Below, piece by piece: positions 633 through 10,767 of a stretch of 64,000 nt of DNA (position 1 is its first letter; each line of letters begins with the position of its first letter). The translations under genes were made by a program, and so were the position numbers. Under the pieces are notes generated by a model. The model was not told where the DNA came from, searched no databases, and worked only from the letters and a program-made list of their open reading frames with translations. Source of the stretch: a virus; IMG/VR virus record IMGVR_UViG_3300027816_000081, positions 1 to 64,000 of that record. One strand, given 5' to 3'.

Positions 633-3350
633 TTATCCGAAATTGAACAAGTCACCTACGGTGCTGTTAGTATTAGTGTCTTGACGAATCTTCCAATTCA
701 ATACACCTAGCAAGTTGTCAATCTTTTCATCAACAAGCTTTCGTTCCATGTCAAGATCATCAAATGGAAGATCAATGAACCATTGCGGAAGTCTTAGTTC
801 ATCTGTCGGATAAGCAACGCTTGTGAATCCGAGAGGATTATCCTTCAAGCTGCAAACAATAACCTTCATGCCATCAACGATCTTTTGACTATATTGATCA
901 TTGTTCATCTTGCGAAGATAGTTATAGTTCAACGCTGCCCTAACGTGACCGGGCATGTTTGCTTTACCAGTCTTGCTTCGTGATTCAAGTTCCCCATAAT
1001 ATGTGAGTTTATTAACCGACTTTGGAGAACCCTTAGACCAAGAATCCTGCTCACTGAGCCAACGCTTGAATGTTCTGATCTTTTCGATAACTTCATCACG
1101 CGGCGCACCACCAAGAACCATAGTCAAGACTTCCATCAAGAATTCCTGAACATATTTGGGAGTATCTGCTCTCTTAAGATCAAGACCCATAGCCTTAATC
1201 TTACCCATCTTACCATCTAAGTCTTGTCGCTTACCTTCAAGATCATAAATGTTGATTGCATAACGCTTCTTAGTGATAAAGAGAGTGCGGTCACCGATAA
1301 GTTCACGACCAGCTTTAATAACTTCGCCGTTCTTACGTGGGCAATGAAATGCACGTTCCATGAAAGCAGGGAAGCTATCGTTAGTAATTTCTGCAATCTG
1401 ATCATATAGTTGGATGCAACTATCCTTGTCCCATGTTAATTGACCACTATCAATCTGATCTTTCAGAATAGGATAAGCTGAGAAATAACAGGAGTCAGTA
1501 TCACCATACACAATAGCGTCGCCGTCGTGTTCATACTTTTCCGTGATGATTTCGTTTATCTGGCTCATCATATGCTTAGTGATTTGACGACCAGACAACG
1601 TAACTGACTGCCCGATTCTTTTATCGTAGAAACGACAATGCTCATTCAAAAGTGCGCCATATGCAGAGTTGAGCAAAATCTTACGAACTAGCTGACGCTT
1701 ATCGTAATACTCAAACTTGTCTGTGCCATATGCAGCCTTTGCTTCTTTCTGAATACTCTTACGTTCTGAATACCAGCGTGAAAGCAATCCTGGGATAACA
1801 CCCTCTTTCTCATATGTAAAGATTGTACCATTAGCACTAATGATCCAGGGGCGACGGCTGTCAAAGATTAGTTTCCAAATCTCTGCGGCACTCATTTCTA
1901 CACTACGACCATCTTCATAGTCAATAGTAAGTATAGTTCCACGCTCTTGATTCATAATAGCAGTATATTCTAATGAACCGAATAGATTTTCCCAAAGAAT
2001 AGCGCCAGTGACCGCATCAGCATCGTCACCGTTCTTTTTCTTGCGCTTATCCTTTGCTAGTGCAATACTCTTTTCATGCATGTATTGTTCGGTCAATGAT
2101 TGGCGAACTTGACCCACGATAGTTTCGGGAGCCATATTCAGCGCACGAATAGCAGATGGATACAGTGAGTTAATGTCAACTGCGCCGACCCATTCATGAA
2201 TGCCCTTCTTAGGCACTGCAACATATGCACCTGCTGCTTGCTGTTCCTCACCAAAACTATCTTTTCGTTTCTTGTCAGGCACAATCATATCACGACTATG
2301 CGCTTCATTATAGATAGCCATTTCAATCATTGCCACCGAACCCATAACAGTGGGAAGCAGCACAGTATTTTCATGTGCTAGAGCGTTAGCAAGATCAAGG
2401 AACTTCAACTTATTGTGAATCTTAACCATCAACATAGTATCCTGACGGTTATACTCTACAAACTTCTTAAAGTCCTTATTGTATAACTGATCAAGGCTAC
2501 CTTCGTATTGAGTCTTGCGTTCGCCAACTTCCATTTCACCGATTGCATCTAGTGAATAGCTGTGGCGACTTTCATAGTTGTACTTCTTGTAAAGCTGTAG
2601 ATAGTCCATGTGAATACGACCAACTAAGTCGTAAGTCTGTTCTTCCTTACCAAAACGTTCATAAGTACGCATCTTTGGCATTTGTCCAAGCAGACAAAAT
2701 TTGCGAGTATCATCCTTACTCATAATACGAGTAACACGATTCACACAATAGGGAATATCGTATCCTTCCGAGTTCCAGCCTGTAAGAACGTCTGCATCTT
2801 CAATCAATGCAAAGAACGTTTCAAACATTTCAATTTCACTGCGGAATAGCAAACAGTTTTCAAACTCTGCTGTTAGTTCCTGTGCAGTCTCGTCACTCAT
2901 ATGCTTTGGAGGCATAACGAGCGTGATTAATTGATCTAGCCAATCCAAATACAATGAAATAGCAGTTACAGCATTGAACGGATCATCAGTAGGACTAAAA
3001 CCTCGTTCGGGGTCAAAGTCCACTTCAATATCAAAGAATGCTGTGTGTAGCTTGGGAGGTTCAACGTTCAGATAGTTATCACTCAAACATCTGAAAACAA
3101 CAGGAATATCACTCTCAAAAAGAGTCTTTCCTTTGTGTATTCTTTTCTCCTTCTCAAACTCATCTTTCTTGCGAGTAGAGAATCTAGTTACAGGATCACC
3201 AAAGATACTACGATACTTACCCTTAGGGTCACTGTAGTAAAATGTGTAGTTGGTAGGATATTCTTTGTAAAGACGCTTTCCCTCAGGGCTGCGCTCTACA
3301 ACAAATATCCTATCAGCTTTGGCATCAAGTACGGCGTCAATGTATGACAT
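633..3350 (-). CDS. Family B DNA polymerase (T4 gp43-like)
   Basis: Exo motifs FFDIEV, GWNSEGYDIPY, YNRQD; polymerase motifs DINSLYPS, KILLNSAYG, YGDTDS; C-terminal clamp-binding-like LFNFG. Confidence 0.97.
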   Translation of the reverse strand: MSYIDAVLDAKADRIFVVERSPEGKRLYKEYPTNYTFYYSDPKGKYRSIFGDPVTRFSTRKKDEFEKEKRIHKGKTLFESDIPVVFRCLSDNYLNVEPPKLHTAFFDIEVDFDPERGFSPTDDPFNAVTAISLYLDWLDQLITLVMPPKHMSDETAQELTAEFENCLLFRSEIEMFETFFALIEDADVLTGWNSEGYDIPYCVNRVTRIMSKDDTRKFCLLGQMPKMRTYERFGKEEQTYDLVGRIHMDYLQLYKKYNYESRHSYSLDAIGEMEVGERKTQYEGSLDQLYNKDFKKFVEYNRQDTMLMVKIHNKLKFLDLANALAHENTVLLPTVMGSVAMIEMAIYNEAHSRDMIVPDKKRKDSFGEEQQAAGAYVAVPKKGIHEWVGAVDINSLYPSAIRALNMAPETIVGQVRQSLTEQYMHEKSIALAKDKRKKKNGDDADAVTGAILWENLFGSLEYTAIMNQERGTILTIDYEDGRSVEMSAAEIWKLIFDSRRPWIISANGTIFTYEKEGVIPGLLSRWYSERKSIQKEAKAAYGTDKFEYYDKRQLVRKILLNSAYGALLNEHCRFYDKRIGQSVTLSGRQITKHMMSQINEIITEKYEHDGDAIVYGDTDSCYFSAYPILKDQIDSGQLTWDKDSCIQLYDQIAEITNDSFPAFMERAFHCPRKNGEVIKAGRELIGDRTLFITKKRYAINIYDLEGKRQDLDGKMGKIKAMGLDLKRADTPKYVQEFLMEVLTMVLGGAPRDEVIEKIRTFKRWLSEQDSWSKGSPKSVNKLTYYGELESRSKTGKANMPGHVRAALNYNYLRKMNNDQYSQKIVDGMKVIVCSLKDNPLGFTSVAYPTDELRLPQWFIDLPFDDLDMERKLVDEKIDNLLGVLNWKIRQDTNTNSTVGDLFNFG

Positions 3351-3684: not shown

Positions 3685-4401
3685 TTACTGGAAGATTTGG
3701 CGATTGTCTTTGCCGTAGATTTTGATGTATTTGCCCGCAAGCATATCGGCCATCGCTTCAATTGGGCTACCAGGATAGCTTGATCCAGGCTTGATCATTC
3801 CTAACTCGCCTTGGCGAACGTGTACGAGTTCATGAAACACAGTGCGTAAGATATCTACGAGATTGCGATTTTTGGCATAGACCCAAACGCTATCTTCACC
3901 CTCAACATGCCGACCGGTATGATGGTTAACTTGGGCCTCTTCGGTATCCATACTCAATTCAATCTTTGGAACCTTATTAAGATGTAATCTTTTGGCAGTC
4001 CAATCAACGAACTTAGCTACCTCTTGTTCAAGGTCCGAATCAACCGAATCAGTTTCATCAAGTTTACCCTTGATCCAACTATCAGGAGTCTTGTGATATT
4101 TCTTTTTGAATAGGTCGTGTAATGCTTTGCCCGTAATCTTATGTTTATGAGCAATCTTTTTCATTAACGTATCAATGGTATTATAGTCATGTTTTGCAAG
4201 TGAGGGCAATCTTTTAGCTAATTCAACTTCGGGCGACTCATTTACGCTTTCACCGCCCCCGCCATCGCCACCGGCGTCACCGCTAGAATCGCCGGTACCA
4301 AAAAAGGCATATCCCGGAAAGAAATAACCACCGTATGCACGGCGAGATTTGGTTTTTCTGCGCTTTTTCTTGCGCTCGGTAATGAATTCGGTGGCTCTCA
4401 T
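3685..4401 (-). CDS. Putative virion-internal protein with C-terminal HExxH zinc metallopeptidase domain
   Basis: Likely start MRATEFITE (ATG 4401, 5 nt after late promoter); LRTVFHELVHVRQ...SPIEAMAD. Confidence 0.7.
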   Translation of the reverse strand: MRATEFITERKKKRRKTKSRRAYGGYFFPGYAFFGTGDSSGDAGGDGGGGESVNESPEVELAKRLPSLAKHDYNTIDTLMKKIAHKHKITGKALHDLFKKKYHKTPDSWIKGKLDETDSVDSDLEQEVAKFVDWTAKRLHLNKVPKIELSMDTEEAQVNHHTGRHVEGEDSVWVYAKNRNLVDILRTVFHELVHVRQGELGMIKPGSSYPGSPIEAMADMLAGKYIKIYGKDNRQIFQ

Positions 4402-4406
4402 ATATG

Positions 4407-4414
4407 TATTTATC
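4407..4414 (-). promoter_or_regulatory. T4-type late promoter (GATAAATA)
   Basis: Motif recurs upstream of many structural/late genes (e.g. near 11096, 19606, 22363, 27794, 34192, 44088, 47807, 48612, 50564, 56132; + strand at 54308, 59373). Confidence 0.7.
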
Positions 4415-4427
4415 ATTTGGATATGGT

Positions 4428-4470: not shown

Positions 4471-4980
4471 TTAGAAACGAAGACCGAAACCAACGAGTCC
4501 GCCGTGACGACCAACATTGCCGTCAAAGTCAGAGTAGCGATACTCAGCCTTAACAAATGTTGAGCCAACAAGCTTCACTTCAAGACCGCCACCTACAGTG
4601 AGACCTTCCAAGTTTGCAGTGTTACGGCAAACTACTGGACGAGTTCCAGTGCAAGTCTGAGGGCGCTCAAGATTGTTGTAGCCGACGCGGGTATAAGCAA
4701 GAACATTCTTGTTCAAGACATAACCGAGACGAGCAGCAGCACCAAGGTCTGCACGGTCAAAGACGTTAGCAGCAGTAGCTTCTGCACCAACAACTACCTT
4801 GCCGAACTGAAGGTCATAGCCAAGGGCTGCGCCATAAGCAATGTCAGTTGCGTCAACACCACCGGTAACGTCATCAGCTCCAGCGGTAACCTCAAAACGA
4901 GGACCCTGGAAGTCATTAGCCATTGCAGGGGTAGTAAAAGCAGCAGTTGCGAGTGCTGCGAGTGCGATTAACTTCTTCAT
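4471..4980 (-). CDS. Outer-membrane beta-barrel protein (8-stranded, Omp25/OmpA-like)
   Basis: Ala-rich signal peptide ending AMA; GYDLQFG, VVGAE, ARLGY, KAEYRYSDF; terminal GLRF beta-signal. Confidence 0.85.
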   Translation of the reverse strand: MKKLIALAALATAAFTTPAMANDFQGPRFEVTAGADDVTGGVDATDIAYGAALGYDLQFGKVVVGAEATAANVFDRADLGAAARLGYVLNKNVLAYTRVGYNNLERPQTCTGTRPVVCRNTANLEGLTVGGGLEVKLVGSTFVKAEYRYSDFDGNVGRHGGLVGFGLRF

Positions 4981-5076
4981 ACTTTTTGTTTTCCTTTTAA
5001 GTTTGAAAATCTGACATTTTCATGTCAGTGTTATATTTACAACATAACTGTGTCTGTGTCAAAATTATTGGGCAAC

Positions 5077-7128
5077 TTACTTTGAAGTTGCCCTGTACAC
5101 TCCATCCCACTTAGCGGGAGGATTGTTCTTAAATTCTTCAATTCGTTCAATCATCATATCGTAATACTGAACCATTTCTCCTCGCCAATGATGTTTTAAA
5201 ATAGTTGCTTGCTTTTCAGCAGCATCCCAATGACCTTGACGATAAAGCTCCAAAAACTTGATATGGGTAGTCTCTGCTAATATTTCATGGAAAGGTAAAA
5301 CTGTGTATATTTTAGCAGGTTCAGTCTTACCTTTAACTGCAATCAAGTCTAGTTCTATAATTTGATATTCATCTTTGACACAACTTGCTGTTTTGGGTCC
5401 GATAACAATTTTGACACCATAGGGCTTAGATTGTCCTTCAAGTCTTGAAGCGAGATTAACCCCATCACCAAGGCAAGTGTAGTCAAAACGCTGGTCAGAA
5501 CCCATGTTACCAACAACAACGGTGTCAGTATTAATGCCAAGGCCCATACCAAAAGCGGGGATACCTTCTTGTCTGATTTCATTATTGAAGTCCTCCAATG
5601 ATTTGAGCATAGTAAATGCTGTTATAACCGCATCCTTAGCGTGTTGTGGATTGTCTAATGGTGCATTCCAAAACGCCATTTGTGCGTCACCGATATACTT
5701 GTCTAATGTACCCTTATTCTCTAGAATAGCTTTGGTCATAGCAGTCATATACCGATTCATGATGCTTGTCAAGCCCTGAACATCTTTACCGTAGTGTTCA
5801 CTAATAGTTGTGAATCCACGAACATCAGTAAACATGATTGTCAATTCTTGCTCTGTACCACCAAGCTTCAATAGTTCTGGTTGACGCTGTAGTTGTGCAA
5901 CAAGATCAGGACTTAGATATGTACCAAACTGCTTCTTAATCTGTTGCTTCTGTAAGTACTCGCTGATAAACTTAACAGTATAGATGTGCAGATAGATTAC
6001 TAATGCAGCCAAAACGTTGAAAGAAATATCAAATAATATCTTGTTATGGGTAAATAGATATATCGGAGCGTAAACATAGCCTGCTAGTAATATGCCGATC
6101 CAAACAATTGAGTATCTTACTCTTGACAGTAAGATAATCAAAACTGAGAGGACAACAAATGCCAAAAGATCAGCAAGATCCACCCAATTCGGAATTGACA
6201 CCGAATCTCCCTTTATTAGAGTCTCAAGAAGACTGGCCTGAACCGTGTGAGGCATTTGGGCACCAGACGGAGTTGCTACTGGGTTTGCAACGCCTTTCGC
6301 GGTCACTCCGAGAACAACAATTTTCCCATCCAGACGAGGAATATCGCCGCCTACTTCAACAGATTGAAATTGGTAATTTGGGTTCATAAACACCCTGCCA
6401 TATTCGTCGGTCTTAATTATACCATACTGAGGAACACGTAATGCTTCAACACCCGTCTGATTTATCTTCGCTTGATATGAAGGATCTCCCGCAGCAACTC
6501 TCAAAAGTTCTAAAGAAAACGCAGGATAATATTCGCCATTTGAAATCCCTAATAAAGGCACTCGGCGAGTTACCCCGTCCGTCTCAGGAAGAGAAGATGT
6601 TATACCGACGCCTACAGCAGACGCTTGAAGTACTGGAATGTTATCAAGCACACATGGATAGTTCGGAAGAAAATCAGTGGGTTGTCCGTCACCGACTACA
6701 GCAATACCTGTGCGGCGAGGGAGACGATTATCCGTAGAGCATTCTTCTACAAGCGTTTGACTTAACACAACCGGATACTGTTTTAATGTCTCAGCAAGTT
6801 TTACATCAGTGCCCATCCTATCAGGTTCAGACATAAGAATAGTAGTACCAACAAGACCAGCGCCGTTATCATAAAGTTCTCTAATAATCTCACCGTATGT
6901 TTCACGAGAGAACGGATATTGTCCATATTTTTCAATTGCTTTCTCCCCAATATTTGCTACTACAATTTGCTCTGACTTAACTGGTTCACCCAGCATCAGA
7001 TAATCGTAATATTTCAGTTTCATACTGTCAACAAGGAACGGATTCATCAACTTCACTAATAGTAATAGTGATAATGTAGCTAATGCTAGCCAGGGCGAAA
7101 GTAAGATTTTATTCAGTTTGTTTAACAT
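5077..7128 (-). CDS. CHASE2-domain class III adenylate cyclase
   Basis: N-terminal TM, CHASE2 (GQYPFSR, DGVTRRVPL), 3 TMs, cyclase motifs MFTDVRGFT, DKYIGDA, GNMGS..RFDYTCLGDGVNLASRLEG. Confidence 0.95.
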   Translation of the reverse strand: MLNKLNKILLSPWLALATLSLLLLVKLMNPFLVDSMKLKYYDYLMLGEPVKSEQIVVANIGEKAIEKYGQYPFSRETYGEIIRELYDNGAGLVGTTILMSEPDRMGTDVKLAETLKQYPVVLSQTLVEECSTDNRLPRRTGIAVVGDGQPTDFLPNYPCVLDNIPVLQASAVGVGITSSLPETDGVTRRVPLLGISNGEYYPAFSLELLRVAAGDPSYQAKINQTGVEALRVPQYGIIKTDEYGRVFMNPNYQFQSVEVGGDIPRLDGKIVVLGVTAKGVANPVATPSGAQMPHTVQASLLETLIKGDSVSIPNWVDLADLLAFVVLSVLIILLSRVRYSIVWIGILLAGYVYAPIYLFTHNKILFDISFNVLAALVIYLHIYTVKFISEYLQKQQIKKQFGTYLSPDLVAQLQRQPELLKLGGTEQELTIMFTDVRGFTTISEHYGKDVQGLTSIMNRYMTAMTKAILENKGTLDKYIGDAQMAFWNAPLDNPQHAKDAVITAFTMLKSLEDFNNEIRQEGIPAFGMGLGINTDTVVVGNMGSDQRFDYTCLGDGVNLASRLEGQSKPYGVKIVIGPKTASCVKDEYQIIELDLIAVKGKTEPAKIYTVLPFHEILAETTHIKFLELYRQGHWDAAEKQATILKHHWRGEMVQYYDMMIERIEEFKNNPPAKWDGVYRATSK

Positions 7129-8197
7129 TGATTATAGTTCCTCCAGCTGGCTCGTTTATTTCAATCAAAAACGCTTTTCCATTACTATCTATATACAACG
7201 ACTTCCCTACATCCTTCTGCACAACAAAGTCAACTGTTGAGTTGAGAGTTCTAACAAGACGTAAATAATCACCTGATATGATAGTAGTTATCTGTGTAGT
7301 ATTGTTAAGTCCAAATGTAGTACCACACAACTTTGTATTATCTTTAGTAACACAATCAGTTGTACTTATATCATCAAGAAAATCTTCTCCTAGAAAATCA
7401 CTATTGATAGCGTTAATATCAAGGTCTGAACTAGCAAGTTGTTCCTCTGTCAAATCATTTGTAGCAAGAAAATCAACATCAAGTTCGGTTAAATCTAATA
7501 TGTTGTTTCTACTATCTTCTGAATCCTCACTAGTGCGAACTTCTTCGGCGGGCGAGACAATCAACATATTATCAATTTGATCTAGTGTAAGATTCAATAT
7601 GACCGGGCGTGAAGGTTTACTGTCTGTAGTAGATATGATAGTTGCTTGAAATGCTTTGGTAAGAATAACAGTACCCGCTGCGTTTGAAACAATGATTTCT
7701 CCTACTGAGCCATTTGGTTCTGGTAAAAGAATAACCAAACTTTTGCCGAAATCATCTACTGTTGCAGCAAAATCAGTTCCTCTCACTGCAATAGTAGCAG
7801 TTGGTGTGCGTAGATTAATATTACTCTTGTTGATCTTTCCTGACTGACCCGTAGCAAATCTAACAGTCCCTGACGCAAACTTGAGGGCCATTCTGCTAGT
7901 AGAAGGTTTGCCGCTGTAAACAAAATCATCAATTACTAATTTGGATTGTTCGGTGACTTTAACGGTAGAGTCATCCACAAACGTGATTTCAACTCTACCG
8001 TTACCGGTCTGTACCCTATCCATTTTAGAAATGGGTAACTGCGGGCGTGTAGGGACACGTTGAGCGTTCTTCACAACTTCACTCGTCCCGCGATTTTGTG
8101 TTACCTTTCCAATATTAGCATGGGCCGAGGGCGTTACACTGATTAATAGTAATAGTGCTGCCGTTGCTTGTGCTATTGATCTTAAGTGTATCAACAT
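7109..8197 (-). CDS. Exported FecR-domain protein
   Basis: Signal peptide (AHA), DRVQTGNGRVEITFVDDSTVKV, TPTATIAVRGTDF. Confidence 0.9.
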   Translation of the reverse strand: MLIHLRSIAQATAALLLLISVTPSAHANIGKVTQNRGTSEVVKNAQRVPTRPQLPISKMDRVQTGNGRVEITFVDDSTVKVTEQSKLVIDDFVYSGKPSTSRMALKFASGTVRFATGQSGKINKSNINLRTPTATIAVRGTDFAATVDDFGKSLVILLPEPNGSVGEIIVSNAAGTVILTKAFQATIISTTDSKPSRPVILNLTLDQIDNMLIVSPAEEVRTSEDSEDSRNNILDLTELDVDFLATNDLTEEQLASSDLDINAINSDFLGEDFLDDISTTDCVTKDNTKLCGTTFGLNNTTQITTIISGDYLRLVRTLNSTVDFVVQKDVGKSLYIDSNGKAFLIEINEPAGGTIINVKQTE

Positions 8198-8810
8198 TCG
8201 ATGTACTCTGCTGGTTTATCGTTACATTATTGGTGTTTCCTGTAAGAACCATTTCAATGTTCTTTCCGGCTGTTCCATTCTGTAATGTAGTGATGTTGTT
8301 TCCGTCACCCATGATAGTTTTAGTATTGACAACATCATCTGCGTTTATTGTAGAGGTAAGTGTATTTGTATCACCCGTTAATGTGATATTCTGAACCGCA
8401 TTAGTTGCAGAAGATGTTGTACCTTGGTTAAAGACAAGACTGTTGGAATCACCGGCAACTGTGAGTGTCTTTGTAGATCCTGCAATAGTTGCGGCACTTC
8501 CTAAGTCATAGGTTAGTGAGTTGTTATCACCCGTCACAGTAGTATCAATGTTTATATTATCTGCTTGGATGATAGAACCCTGCACAGAATTATTGTTACC
8601 TTCCTGTGTTATTGTAATTGTTTGATTATTGCCTTCAAGTACTACACGGTTAGCTTCGGTACCTATTTTGTTACTTTGCCCTTTTTGTGTAATATCAATT
8701 GTGCTGGTATCACCTACTTGCTCAATATAAACTGAGTTAGTTGTTGATTGTGCGAAAGATAGTGTGCTGGTCATCAGTGCGATGACAAAAAGCATTAGTT
8801 TGTTTTTCAT
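8115..8810 (-). CDS. Curlin-repeat (CsgA/CsgB-like) secreted protein
   Basis: Signal peptide, repeated I-x-Q-x-G-x-x-N units (IEQVGD, ITQKGQSN, ITQEGNNN), Asn/Thr rich; downstream of csgG. Confidence 0.8.
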   Translation of the reverse strand: MKNKLMLFVIALMTSTLSFAQSTTNSVYIEQVGDTSTIDITQKGQSNKIGTEANRVVLEGNNQTITITQEGNNNSVQGSIIQADNINIDTTVTGDNNSLTYDLGSAATIAGSTKTLTVAGDSNSLVFNQGTTSSATNAVQNITLTGDTNTLTSTINADDVVNTKTIMGDGNNITTLQNGTAGKNIEMVLTGNTNNVTINQQSTSNVDTLKINSTSNGSTITINQCNALGPC

Positions 8811-9628
8811 TGTTTTGTTTCCCCTGTTACCGATAGATCGTATTCAATCTTCGGCGCAACTTTAAAATATCCCTTTTCTATTCCTTGTTTTACCATTTGT
8901 AAAACTGCTTCTTCAATTGCCATCTTGACTGCCATTGTGTTAGCTTCATTTTCAGTCATTCCGGCTTCTGCTTCAATTAATTTAGTGCCAACATCTACGA
9001 ACTTAAACACTGACAGGTCTCTGCCTACAGATAATACAGTTTTTGAGACTTGTACGTTAAGTATTACTTCACCTGTGTTAGTACTAACTGCACGCAATGA
9101 CACTACCACTTGATCTTTTCTATAAACTGTTGAACCGCCGATGCCCAAATATCTTGCGCCCGCGCCACCTGTCTGGATGTTAGTATCATAGCCAATGATG
9201 CCACCTTGGATGATCAATCCAGCAAATAGCATAGGATCAAGCTTATTTTCCCCCTCGCCCGAATATTCTTCACGAGTTTGACGAACAATTTGGCGTTCTC
9301 TTGCTAGGTCGTCTACTCTGTTGCGTTCTACTACTCTGAACCAAGTGCCTCCACCTGCGTCCTTCAACGCAGAAATCAATAATGGGGCACCGCCTTGTGT
9401 AACAGCAGTTGAGATACTAGCAATACCATCTTTGTCTTTGCGTTGACCAGTTAAATCAGGAAACTCATATACCGCTACTACTGCCTGTCTTTCGGGTGCC
9501 GGTAATGTGTATAGTTCGTTTACTTGAGTAGTTAATCTTGTGGGATTATCCTTTATTTCAAGTATGCCTGACCCAGTGGACATGCATCCGGACAATAATA
9601 AGGGTAATATCAATATCTTATAGTTCAT
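8807..9628 (-). CDS. csgG: Curli secretion channel lipoprotein CsgG
   Basis: Lipobox LLSGC; VAVYEFPDLTGQRK, STAVTQG, WFRVVER, ERQIVR, GGIIGYDTN..TGGAGARYLGIG. Confidence 0.95.
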   Translation of the reverse strand: MNYKILILPLLLSGCMSTGSGILEIKDNPTRLTTQVNELYTLPAPERQAVVAVYEFPDLTGQRKDKDGIASISTAVTQGGAPLLISALKDAGGGTWFRVVERNRVDDLARERQIVRQTREEYSGEGENKLDPMLFAGLIIQGGIIGYDTNIQTGGAGARYLGIGGSTVYRKDQVVVSLRAVSTNTGEVILNVQVSKTVLSVGRDLSVFKFVDVGTKLIEAEAGMTENEANTMAVKMAIEEAVLQMVKQGIEKGYFKVAPKIEYDLSVTGETKQ

Positions 9629-10071
9629 TACCATTTAAATCCAGTAGTAGGAACTATGATTTCTGTTTGGTTGCCATCAGCGTCAGTGATTACTAGCTTT
9701 ATTTCTGTGTCTGTTTTTTCGTATCTGATTATGTTGCCTTCAAGTGTAAACTCCCCACGCTGTCCCCCCATTGAACCAAATAAGTTGTTGGTCAATTGTT
9801 GAGCTAATTGAGAGTAGATACGAGACTGCAAGTTGTTTAGAAAACGGTTTAAGATGGAGTTCTTTTCTTCTAGTGCTTTTGCTTTAAGATCAGCCTCTAT
9901 CTTATCCTGAATAGCCTTCTTTCTAGTAGCTTCCTGATTTTCAATTGTTAACCAGTGTGCTCCGGTGTTAACTCCCGAAAATGATGGGTTTTTAAATTGG
10001 AATACTATCTCGGTAGCCTGTGCAGGAGTGCTTACTAAGAGTCCTAATAATAGTGTTACTCGTTTCAGCAT
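9628..10071 (-). CDS. csgF: Curli assembly protein CsgF
   Basis: Signal peptide, mature N-terminus TEIVFQFKNPSFSG, FLNNLQSRIYSQL; adjacent to csgG. Confidence 0.9.
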   Translation of the reverse strand: MLKRVTLLLGLLVSTPAQATEIVFQFKNPSFSGVNTGAHWLTIENQEATRKKAIQDKIEADLKAKALEEKNSILNRFLNNLQSRIYSQLAQQLTNNLFGSMGGQRGEFTLEGNIIRYEKTDTEIKLVITDADGNQTEIIVPTTGFKW

Positions 10072-10086
10072 TTTTCCTGTACACCT

Positions 10087-10395
10087 TTAGTTCTTATCTG
10101 TTTTAGATGGTTTAGCCTGATTAATCATATGCTCAGCTTCAATTCTTTCTCTCTCAATAGTCTTACCGCGCAAATGCAATACAGTATCCACTTTTTGATT
10201 CATTCTAATCAAATCATTATCAAGCATACGAATACGATCAATGAGTGCTACTAACGTAGTGTTTGCTTCGCTTAATACTGGTTTTACCTCAGTAGTTGCC
10301 CACTTCCAAACATAGTATACGAAATATCCCATGCCGAATGCAGCAACAATAGGGAAACCATACTCACCGATTAGTTTAGCTATATTTGGTCCCAT
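10087..10395 (-). CDS. Small membrane protein (YvrJ-like GFPI motif), paralogue 2
   Basis: EYGFPIVAAFGMGYFVYYVW plus coiled coil. Confidence 0.6.
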   Translation of the reverse strand: MGPNIAKLIGEYGFPIVAAFGMGYFVYYVWKWATTEVKPVLSEANTTLVALIDRIRMLDNDLIRMNQKVDTVLHLRGKTIERERIEAEHMINQAKPSKTDKN

Positions 10396-10676
10396 TAGTC
10401 TCTCCTTGCATCATTTTTACCGTCTGCACGAGCAACACGGTTAATATCTGGCTTAAGGCCCAAAGCATTTGACACGACGGTATCAATACGTATAACGTCA
10501 TGATTCATTGTTTTAACACGATTGTCTAATGCCGTGATTATGTCCTTCATGCCCGCAACAGAACCTGTTACGCCTGCAAGAATGAACTTCAATGTAAGAA
10601 ATACGAAATAGCCGGCAGCGACTGCTGCTGCGATTGGAAAGCCCACATCGGCAACTAGTTTAAAAAATTCCCCCAC
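10395..10676 (-). CDS. Small membrane protein (YvrJ-like GFPI motif), paralogue 1
   Basis: DVGFPIAAAVAAGYFVF plus coiled coil; GTG start with SD AAGGAG. Confidence 0.6.
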   Translation of the reverse strand: MGEFFKLVADVGFPIAAAVAAGYFVFLTLKFILAGVTGSVAGMKDIITALDNRVKTMNHDVIRIDTVVSNALGLKPDINRVARADGKNDARRD

Positions 10677-10767
10677 AATAGCTCCTTATTATTATTATAA
10701 TAATATTTAGCCATGTGGGGGTATTTTAAAACTACTAGTTTATTAAAACTACGTACTTTTTACGTTA

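Follow-up and report, generated by a model that had tools for sequence, protein, structure and literature searches.

A curli-type secretion block with a FecR-fold protein and a CHASE2 adenylate cyclase in an uncultured giant phage: a possible virus-encoded sensor at the cell envelope

Why should a bacteriophage carry, packed together on one strand, the genes for a curli-type secretion pore, a curlin-like secreted subunit, an exported FecR-fold protein and a membrane-bound adenylate cyclase? The question is raised by a block of seven genes in a 64,000-nucleotide stretch of viral DNA, comprising positions 1 to 64,000 of the IMG/VR record IMGVR_UViG_3300027816_000081, which we refer to in its entirety as the window. 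In the initial annotation of this DNA the block was put forward as a possible new system, a description that the literature does not allow, since the whole block, including the FecR and adenylate cyclase genes, has been published from SAR11 podophages and myophages (Wittmers et al. 2022, PMC9599517), alongside the report of curli genes in pelagimyophages (Zaragoza-Solas et al. 2020, PMC7029224) and a study in which the pore of phage Melnitz was modelled and a role in lysis was proposed for it (Buchholz et al. 2022, PMC9004378). The viral block is reported to be globally distributed and to be represented by transcripts in ocean metatranscriptomes, and the same authors noted that FecR and the cyclase do not belong to bacterial curli operons (PMC9599517). 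What is new here is confined to the giant-phage carrier and the missing second curlin gene, and the window adds one further member only to a block that is spread across unrelated phage families and whose function is an acknowledged mystery. As to that function, we tentatively favour, at a probability of roughly 0.45, the reading that the block would act as an outside-in envelope sensor that makes cyclic AMP (cAMP), and in what follows we set out the evidence for this reading together with the alternatives that have to be weighed against it.

The first step towards an answer is to ask whether the genes form a unit. All seven are present and lie on the minus strand, overlapping or abutting as the initial annotation had described them, and they fill the interval from 10676 down to 5077 with junctions that overlap by 1, 4, 7, 20 or 83 nt or leave a gap of 15 nt; the FecR gene starts 83 nt inside the curlin gene, the two sharing 8115–8197, and itself overlaps the cyclase gene by 20 nt. 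The first gene, pepA, begins with a GTG that has an AAGGAG ribosome-binding site in front of it, and further upstream lies a weak promoter-like site of the sigma-70 type (10700–10729, minus strand; TTAAAA-18-TATTAT, 9/12 consensus), which is a positional hint only, matches of this kind being no commoner in the region than in shuffled sequences. At the opposite end, a terminator-like hairpin (5070–5093, minus strand) with a 9-bp stem containing five G-C pairs and a T-rich tail is placed over the stop codon of the cyclase gene and probably ends the transcription unit. Because the junctions overlap and the terminator falls at the cyclase stop, the arrangement reads as a single, tightly packed unit, and the seven genes appear to be co-transcribed as one phage unit. 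The length of the curlin/FecR overlap varies among related loci (which we number with the prefix L), being about 80 nt in the close relatives L006, L008 and L012, and about 29 nt or absent in the divergent L045 and L014.

The same genes keep one another's company in other viruses. Relatives of the window's cyclase are encoded in more than 583 IMG/VR stretches, and among the best 80 of these, which make up our cyclase-anchored survey, 46 are well flanked in the sense of having at least 6.5 kb of sequence upstream; the genes for CsgF, CsgG, curlin and FecR lie upstream and on the same strand in all 46, and the small membrane proteins that open the block are present in 45. Approached from the other end, loci anchored on the CsgG of phage HTVC008M and extending at least 5 kb downstream include a cyclase in 17 of 18 cases, the exception being L232. 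The linkage of the block genes is far beyond chance, and the possibility, raised in the initial annotation as one that a synteny survey could bring to light, that the genes would turn out to be unlinked in relatives is not borne out. The small-protein genes have been relocated in some loci rather than lost, lying downstream on the opposite strand in L060–L067 and L083, and in L212–L223 one of them is interleaved between csgF and csgG. Of 67 cyclase-anchored loci, 36 leave space between FecR and cyclase for a second curlin gene, and in the loci examined this space holds a second, larger curlin-like open reading frame; in the other 31 FecR abuts the cyclase, as it does in the window.

The second step concerns the cyclase, a putative receptor enzyme encoded at 5077–7128 on the minus strand, in which a CHASE2 domain (Pfam CHASE2, E 7e-35) is joined to a catalytic domain (Guanylate_cyc, E 6e-20). 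CHASE2 is an extracytoplasmic input domain. By hydropathy the protein is laid out as a first transmembrane segment (TM1, residues 7–34), the CHASE2 domain (about 35–311), a cluster of three transmembrane segments (312–388) and a class IIIb catalytic domain (427–608), followed by a conserved C-terminal helical extension, so that the CHASE2 domain, held between TM1 and the three-segment cluster, should face the periplasm. The best alignment is to CyaB of Pseudomonas aeruginosa (3r5g, E 4e-32), and the closest solved relatives are adenylate cyclases. When read against 3r5g, the metal-binding residues D435 and D481, the substrate residues K477 and T551, a Lys/Thr pair characteristic of class IIIb adenylate cyclases, and the transition-state residues N558 and R562 are all intact, which upholds what had been claimed of the active site from the window alone, and the enzyme looks catalytically competent and ATP-specific. 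Among seven phage homologues these catalytic residues are invariant except for T551, whose position is occupied by Ser in HTVC008M and by Asp in Melnitz, and N558, which is replaced by Ser in Melnitz.

Some variation among these cyclases may be recorded in its own right. The HTVC008M enzyme (L002:7932-9767) is without a C-terminal extension of about 70 residues; the other phage homologues conserve this extension (the Melnitz cyclase is L001:7932-9983), and the full-length matches of bacterial cyclases cover it. In L070–L082 the CHASE2 and membrane part is about 40% identical to that of the window and the catalytic domain 87–91% identical, a pattern of domain-level recombination within the cyclase gene, whose sensor and catalytic halves are uncoupled. 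A role in Pycsar (PycC) or another form of defence was considered and rejected, because the match to PycC (E 6e-24) amounts to generic class III homology and no effector with a domain that binds cyclic nucleotide monophosphates (cNMPs) was found in five related phage records.

If the cyclase is a receptor, the third step is to ask what could stand between it and the outer membrane, and here the FecR-fold protein is a candidate. This exported protein of 362 aa, encoded at 7109–8197 on the minus strand (Pfam PF04773, E 4e-12), consists of a signal peptide, a FecR domain (about residues 28–215), a linker rich in acidic residues (29% D/E) and a C-terminal part that is variable and rich in beta structure. 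Compared with PDB representatives, its model resembles the cell-surface signalling domain of PupR (6ovm, Z 10.2), a Bacteroidales anti-sigma factor (4m0h, Z 8.9) and the N-terminal domain of MpIBP from Marinomonas (5ix9, Z 7.3, with an rmsd of 2.1 Å over 73/76 residues), the last of which is also the top Foldseek match (probability 1.0, 33% identity over 61 columns, E 7e-3). The 5ix9 domain is a periplasmic plug that lodges MpIBP, and by homology LapA, in a TolC-like channel (PMC5550230; bioRxiv 10.1101/198937). The FecR fold has two known uses, therefore, and each of them places it on the periplasmic side of a protein of the outer membrane. An anti-sigma regulator of the FecIRA type was rejected as a candidate, the FecR fold following directly upon the signal peptide (from about residue 28) and the protein being without the N-terminal cytoplasmic anti-sigma domain and membrane anchor of such regulators.

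The secretion genes themselves are of the curli type. CsgF is encoded at 9628–10071 (minus strand; Pfam PF10614, E 1e-23) and has a signal peptide. The N-terminal peptide of CsgF inserts into the CsgG barrel, where it forms a constriction, and in the window this CsgG-binding peptide is conserved, as FQFKNPSFSG, in an alignment to E. coli CsgF (6l7a). CsgG, encoded at 8807–9634 (minus strand; Pfam PF03783, E 4e-50), is a lipoprotein and predicted outer-membrane pore with an LLLSGC lipobox and a match to E. coli CsgG (3x2r) at E 1e-46, in which alignment other residues take the eyelet positions Y51, N55 and F56, within a charged loop that is two residues longer. Searches whose E. coli control was positive detected neither CsgE (PF10627) nor CsgC (PF10610), whether in the window's own record or in four related records, of which three are at least 90% complete, and neither CRP nor CsgD was found in five related phage records; the missing csgE and csgC had been noted at the outset. 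The absence of CsgE speaks for a suggestion made in PMC7029224 and PMC9599517, namely that an ungated CsgG pore admits nutrients or cofactors to the periplasm, which we hold to be extremely improbable, as it leaves the conserved constriction peptide of CsgF, the curlin, the FecR-fold protein and the cyclase all unexplained.

The subunit that such a pore would export is encoded at 8115–8810 (minus strand). Its product has a signal peptide, a predicted beta-solenoid of about eight rungs and a C-terminal Cys pair, and its family matches are sub-threshold, with Pfam Curlin_rpt reaching 19.6 bits against a cut-off of 20.7 and NCBIfam CsgA reaching an E of 9e-5, below its own cut-off; a Foldseek search of the model against the PDB returned weak, generic beta-helix matches only and no CsgA. 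Seven G-x-x-N motifs, at residues 44, 71, 94, 120, 146, 168 and 191 and spaced by 22–27 residues, are invariant in 25 homologues, and AlphaFold models the product as a beta-solenoid of 17 strands at a pLDDT of 81. We call the product curlin-like, then, as a weaker call, made below the family cut-offs but backed by the repeats, the invariance of the motifs and the model.

At the head of the block lie pepA (10395–10676, minus strand), which encodes a bitopic membrane protein of 93 aa, and its paralogue pepB (10087–10395, minus strand), which encodes 102 aa and has a 1-nt stop/start overlap with pepA. Both proteins match phrog_18771 (E 1e-33 and E 1e-30, respectively) and share a GFPI motif, a single membrane segment and a conserved charged helix; by hydropathy the segment of pepA (residues 7–43) is a clear transmembrane one, and that of pepB is weaker and rich in aromatic residues. 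Among 50,697 phage records, the pepA family was found only in Melnitz and HTVC008M, where it adjoins csgF. The pepB product also has a weak holin match (phrog_4898, E 4e-4), and its nearest named Atlas clusters, which serve as leads only, are YvrJ (0.87) and Holin_BhlA (0.84). It is these holin-like signals, together with the changed eyelet residues of CsgG, that lend some colour to the role in lysis timing proposed for Melnitz from modelling and synteny (PMC9004378), in which CsgG and CsgF would form a gated outer-membrane channel, the small proteins would be holin and antiholin and the cyclase would tune the timing. The signals are weak, however, and confined to about 25 residues; a 1–2 nm pore in the outer membrane is by itself insufficient for lysis, there is no endolysin or spanin within the unit, and the curlin and FecR genes are left unexplained, so that we regard this proposal as distinctly unlikely.

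The small proteins have also been labelled as histidine kinases ('HK'), a label that we reject, because neither protein has a Pfam domain or a HisKA or HATPase match even at E values up to 10 and no His is invariant across 25 aligned small-protein sequences. In E. coli, csgD is under cAMP-CRP control. An analogous inside-out scheme has been read into the viral block (PMC9599517), whereby cAMP, with FecR and the supposed histidine kinase, would regulate the viral secretion system, in its expression or its activity, in the manner of csgD. Besides the E. coli example, it can draw on a natural precedent for cAMP control of secretion, the bacterial locus L116 described below, where a cNMP-binding–HlyD fusion stands beside the cyclase. 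Against it we set the apparent co-transcription of all the genes from one unit, the absence of CsgD, CRP and cNMP-binding domains from the five related phage records, the nature of the supposed kinases, which are bitopic proteins of 93–102 aa, and the character of CHASE2 as an input domain outside the cytoplasm; we judge such a scheme to be very unlikely.

Where the block may have come from is the fourth step, and it bears directly on what the pairing of FecR and cyclase means. The phage cyclase is matched over its full length, at about 35% identity, by its 80 closest bacterial relatives, almost all of which come from Alphaproteobacteria (Bradyrhizobium, other Hyphomicrobiales, Rhodospirillales and marine single-cell genomes), and profiles made from the phage proteins detected no CsgG, CsgF, curlin or small GFPI protein in any of the 80 loci that hold them. 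A FecR-domain gene, by contrast, is present in 22 of the 46 bacterial loci that are well flanked (at least 8 kb on both sides), against a chance expectation of about 0.015 within 10 kb; FecR domains number 2–6 per genome in five of these bacteria. Nine loci match the phage in having the FecR gene directly upstream of the cyclase gene, abutting it and co-oriented with it. The co-occurrence of FecR-like and CHASE2-cyclase genes in bacteria, which the initial annotation mentioned, is seen here as well as in PMC5498481, PMC9239204 and PMC5192318. An HlyD-type fusion protein is encoded within 6 kb in 19 of the 46 loci, and one or other of FecR and HlyD in 33.

These bacterial FecR neighbours are mostly 1000–1800 aa in length, with the FecR domain near the N-terminus and cadherin-like, Big_9, VCBS, LamG, NIDO, BapA-like or RTX repeats, and they look like large secreted adhesins; two of them have sub-threshold matches to retention_LapA, the NCBI model of the retention module. 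In L086, L089, L149 and L153 the genes stand in the order FecR-adhesin, ATP-binding cassette (ABC) transporter, HlyD, cyclase. In L116 (L116:3562-20976), from a marine alphaproteobacterial single-cell genome, a TolC-like OEP and an ABC protein with a C39-like domain are followed by a fusion protein, with a cNMP-binding domain N-terminal to HlyD, and the cyclase; close to these are another ABC/HlyD pair and a FecR-RTX protein. We found no paper in the available literature that links CHASE2 cyclases with type I secretion or RTX proteins.

Close homologues of the phage CsgG (44–53% identity), accompanied by csgF and curlin genes, were found in only 7 of 401 alphaproteobacterial genomes sampled, and these seven csg loci have no FecR, cyclase or small-protein gene within 10 kb; no bacterial copy of the whole block was found either in the 80 cyclase loci or in the seven genomes with a close CsgG. 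To judge from these distributions, the phage block looks like a chimera of an alphaproteobacterial-type csgF-csgG-curlin operon and a FecR/CHASE2-cyclase pair of the sort that in bacteria goes with type I secretion and its giant retained adhesins. We propose, by analogy, that the phage would have kept the logic of the bacterial loci (a channel, a surface repeat protein, a FecR head and a CHASE2 cyclase) and swapped the type I channel for another. On this analogy the block might be a type VIII-pore miniature of a hitherto undescribed bacterial device in which a periplasmic FecR head holds a surface repeat protein in its outer-membrane channel and the CHASE2 cyclase reports, as cAMP, whether the fibre has been placed, pulled or lost; so specific a picture we consider doubtful. 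Were it true, giant type I-secreted adhesins would be coupled to cAMP in bacteria, with cAMP feeding back on secretion through the cNMP-binding fusion in L116, and in phages the infected cell would be able to detect contact, lysis of its neighbours or superinfection, and to tune host physiology or the timing of lysis in response.

With these components in hand, the outside-in sensor can be spelt out. CsgG and CsgF would export the curlin in the infected cell, giving rise to a surface fibre or cap; the FecR-fold protein would reside in the periplasm at the pore or at the base of the fibre, perhaps as a plug or adaptor, a role made possible by the absence of CsgE; its state would be read by the CHASE2 domain, and an event at or beyond the outer membrane would in this way be turned into synthesis of cAMP in the cytoplasm. 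The cAMP would act on host receptors, since no phage cNMP-binding protein was found in the related records. We favour the outside-in direction because CHASE2 is an extracytoplasmic input domain, because control by cAMP of the block's own expression makes little sense if all its genes are co-transcribed and because no phage CRP, CsgD or cNMP-binding protein was found. A further reason is the experimental precedent of NsrA and the CHASE2 cyclases of Sinorhizobium meliloti (PMC7529298).

How tightly the parts of such a sensor are matched to one another can be read from the per-gene identities to the window, compared across loci. In this comparison, whose correlations are not phylogenetically independent, CsgF, CsgG, curlin and FecR co-vary with r of 0.96–0.98 and fall into discrete classes, and the two small proteins vary in step (r 0.94) and show a moderate correlation with CHASE2 (r 0.6). 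The segment from CsgF to FecR is about 80% identical to that of the window in L037, L051, L053–55 and L058, where the cyclase is at 67–69% and PolB, the family B DNA polymerase, at about 30%; the same segment is 31–49% identical in L011, L014 and L019, where PolB stands at 77–87% and the first small protein at 81–86%. On these identities the genes for CsgF, CsgG, curlin and FecR pass between unrelated phages as a single cassette, to which the cyclase does not belong. The exchanged cassette always lands between the small proteins and the cyclase, and it is for this reason that we regard the block as a functional unit.

Several results nevertheless weigh against a sensor in which FecR speaks to CHASE2, and they are best taken together. 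The correlation between FecR and CHASE2 is only 0.24, subject to the same want of phylogenetic independence, and CHASE2 domains of about 70% identity are found with FecR alleles at 40% as well as at 87%; FecR goes with the Csg genes, and these values speak against a highly allele-specific match of FecR to CHASE2. Podophage versions of the block are reported often to keep FecR but to lack the cyclase (PMC9599517), and since such cyclase-less modules, to which L232 can be added, retain FecR, the protein must have a role inside the secretion part. The model of the FecR-fold protein is confident for residues 30–200 only, its C-terminal half (215–362) being of low confidence, and a profile from 27 phage FecR proteins reaches 5ix9 at an E of 0.03, which is marginal by sequence. 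As for a phage-encoded receiver, a search for the cNMP-binding domain PF00027 found none in five related phage records, other receptor types not having been searched. The sensing idea of the initial annotation survives these results in part: one conserved unit, an intact cyclase, the company that FecR-domain genes keep with CHASE2 receptors in bacteria, a FecR fold of the relay type (PupR, Z 10.2) and the NsrA precedent speak for it, a tight pairing of FecR with CHASE2 is not supported, and the cues that it names (competing phage, contact, neighbouring infected cells) are conjectural.

The same observations feed the principal alternative, in which the block would be a fibre machine that makes amyloid-like fibres with FecR in place of CsgE, the cyclase being an independent host-takeover gene that travels alongside; such fibres would aid aggregation ('sibling capture'), shield against superinfection or promote adhesion, functions put forward in PMC7029224 and PMC9599517. 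The repeat signature of the curlin is retained and its solenoid model is intact, and many relatives carry a second, larger curlin gene, findings that also leave unsupported the earlier suggestion that the block acts 'rather than' making fibres; moreover, FecR is inherited with the Csg genes and not with the cyclase, and modules without a cyclase exist (L232; PMC9599517). What an independent cyclase does not explain is its presence in 17/18 and 46/46 loci and its staying adjacent through repeated exchange of the Csg-FecR segment, nor does it account for FecR-domain genes being about 25-fold enriched beside the bacterial cyclase family, where there are no Csg genes. Melnitz-infected cells, besides, showed no clumping (Buchholz et al., PMC9004378). 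We regard a fibre machine with an unconnected cyclase as somewhat unlikely, and keep the outside-in sensor as our preferred reading.

The genomic setting identifies the carrier. The window is phage DNA, with a family B DNA polymerase gene (633–3350) and genes for a tail tube protein and virion proteins around the block, and its parent IMG/VR record is a 99.8-kb fragment with an estimated completeness of 29%. The window's PolB is closest, at 45–47% identity, to those of Sinorhizobium phage Phosso and Agrobacterium phage Atu_ph07, whose genomes are 470–490 kb, and contigs related to the carrier phage reach 260–360 kb. The carrier is an uncultured giant phage, and neither a T4-like pelagimyophage nor a podophage. 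In the relatives L019 (L019:10990-15407) and L038 (L038:13133-16968) the PolB gene matches as two pieces 1.1–1.6 kb apart, which suggests an insertion (an intein, an intron or a homing endonuclease gene) that the window's PolB gene is without.

Just beyond the cyclase terminator, at 4471–4980 on the minus strand and apparently in a transcription unit of its own, a gene encodes an outer-membrane beta-barrel protein of 169 aa (Pfam OMP_b-brl, E 9e-13) with eight strands, a signal peptide and a C-terminal Phe, which may be an accessory to the block. Homologues of this barrel protein occur near the module, at differing positions, in other lineages (L017, L018, L052, L056 and L079). Between the barrel and PolB genes, 3685–4416 encodes a protein of 243 aa with a very basic N-terminus and no Pfam domain, of unassigned function, which is conserved at 65–86% identity only among phages of the window's own lineage.

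If the block is indeed a sensor that sets cAMP in infected cells, here would be one of the few viruses to bring along a signalling pathway of its own from the cell surface to the cytoplasm, and it would provide a handle on the ligand logic of CHASE2 domains. The bacterial loci in which type I secretion genes, FecR-adhesins and CHASE2 cyclases lie together offer culturable systems, such as Bradyrhizobium, for the same coupling.

Set beside known systems, the block shares with the canonical curli of E. coli a CsgG lipoprotein and the N-terminal peptide of CsgF, to which comes a subunit whose curlin-type repeats stay below the family cut-offs, and it differs in being without CsgE, CsgC and CsgD and in its changed eyelet residues. 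With adhesins of the LapA/MpIBP type it has in common the resemblance of the N-terminal part of its FecR-fold protein to the plug domain RIN (5ix9), whereas the phage protein, at 362 aa, is Sec-exported rather than the head of a giant, C-terminally secreted adhesin, and the block has no LapG/LapD.

Exported FecR proteins paired with CHASE2 receptors are known from bacteria, in smc02177-cyaD1 of S. meliloti (PMC5498481), in a cyclase cluster of Campylobacterota (PMC9239204) and in a Burkholderia operon, where a LysM-FecR protein likewise stands beside a CHASE2 receptor, in this case a histidine kinase (PMC5192318); FecR is usually upstream of the receptor in these pairs, as in the phage. The bacterial loci closest to the phage cyclase are different in that FecR heads a giant adhesin or RTX protein, the neighbours are those of type I secretion and there are no Csg genes. 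The only experimental trans-envelope input to a CHASE2 cyclase that we found is that of S. meliloti, where the outer-membrane protein NsrA is reported to be needed for the cyclases CyaK, CyaD1 and CyaD2 to raise cAMP (PMC7529298, PMC13001267), in response to an external protein signal that is also contained in lysates of bacteria and yeast (PMC7529298); NsrA is a large beta-barrel protein and not a CsgG pore, and its pathway has a known receiver, Clr.

The closest match of all remains the viral type VIII secretion system (T8SS) of pelagiphages and methylophages, known from Pelagibacter phage HTVC008M, Methylophilales phage Melnitz and HTVC023P-type podophages, with which the window agrees in gene set and order, from the two small genes to the cyclase, and in the lack of CsgE. 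The window's proteins are 38–59% identical to those of HTVC008M and Melnitz, the curlin alone standing at 25–33%. The annotated order in those two phages is two small genes, csgF, csgG, curlin, FecR, second curlin and cyclase; the window is without the second curlin gene, which is frequent but not universal in the viral T8SS, and its FecR and cyclase genes overlap by 20 nt instead.

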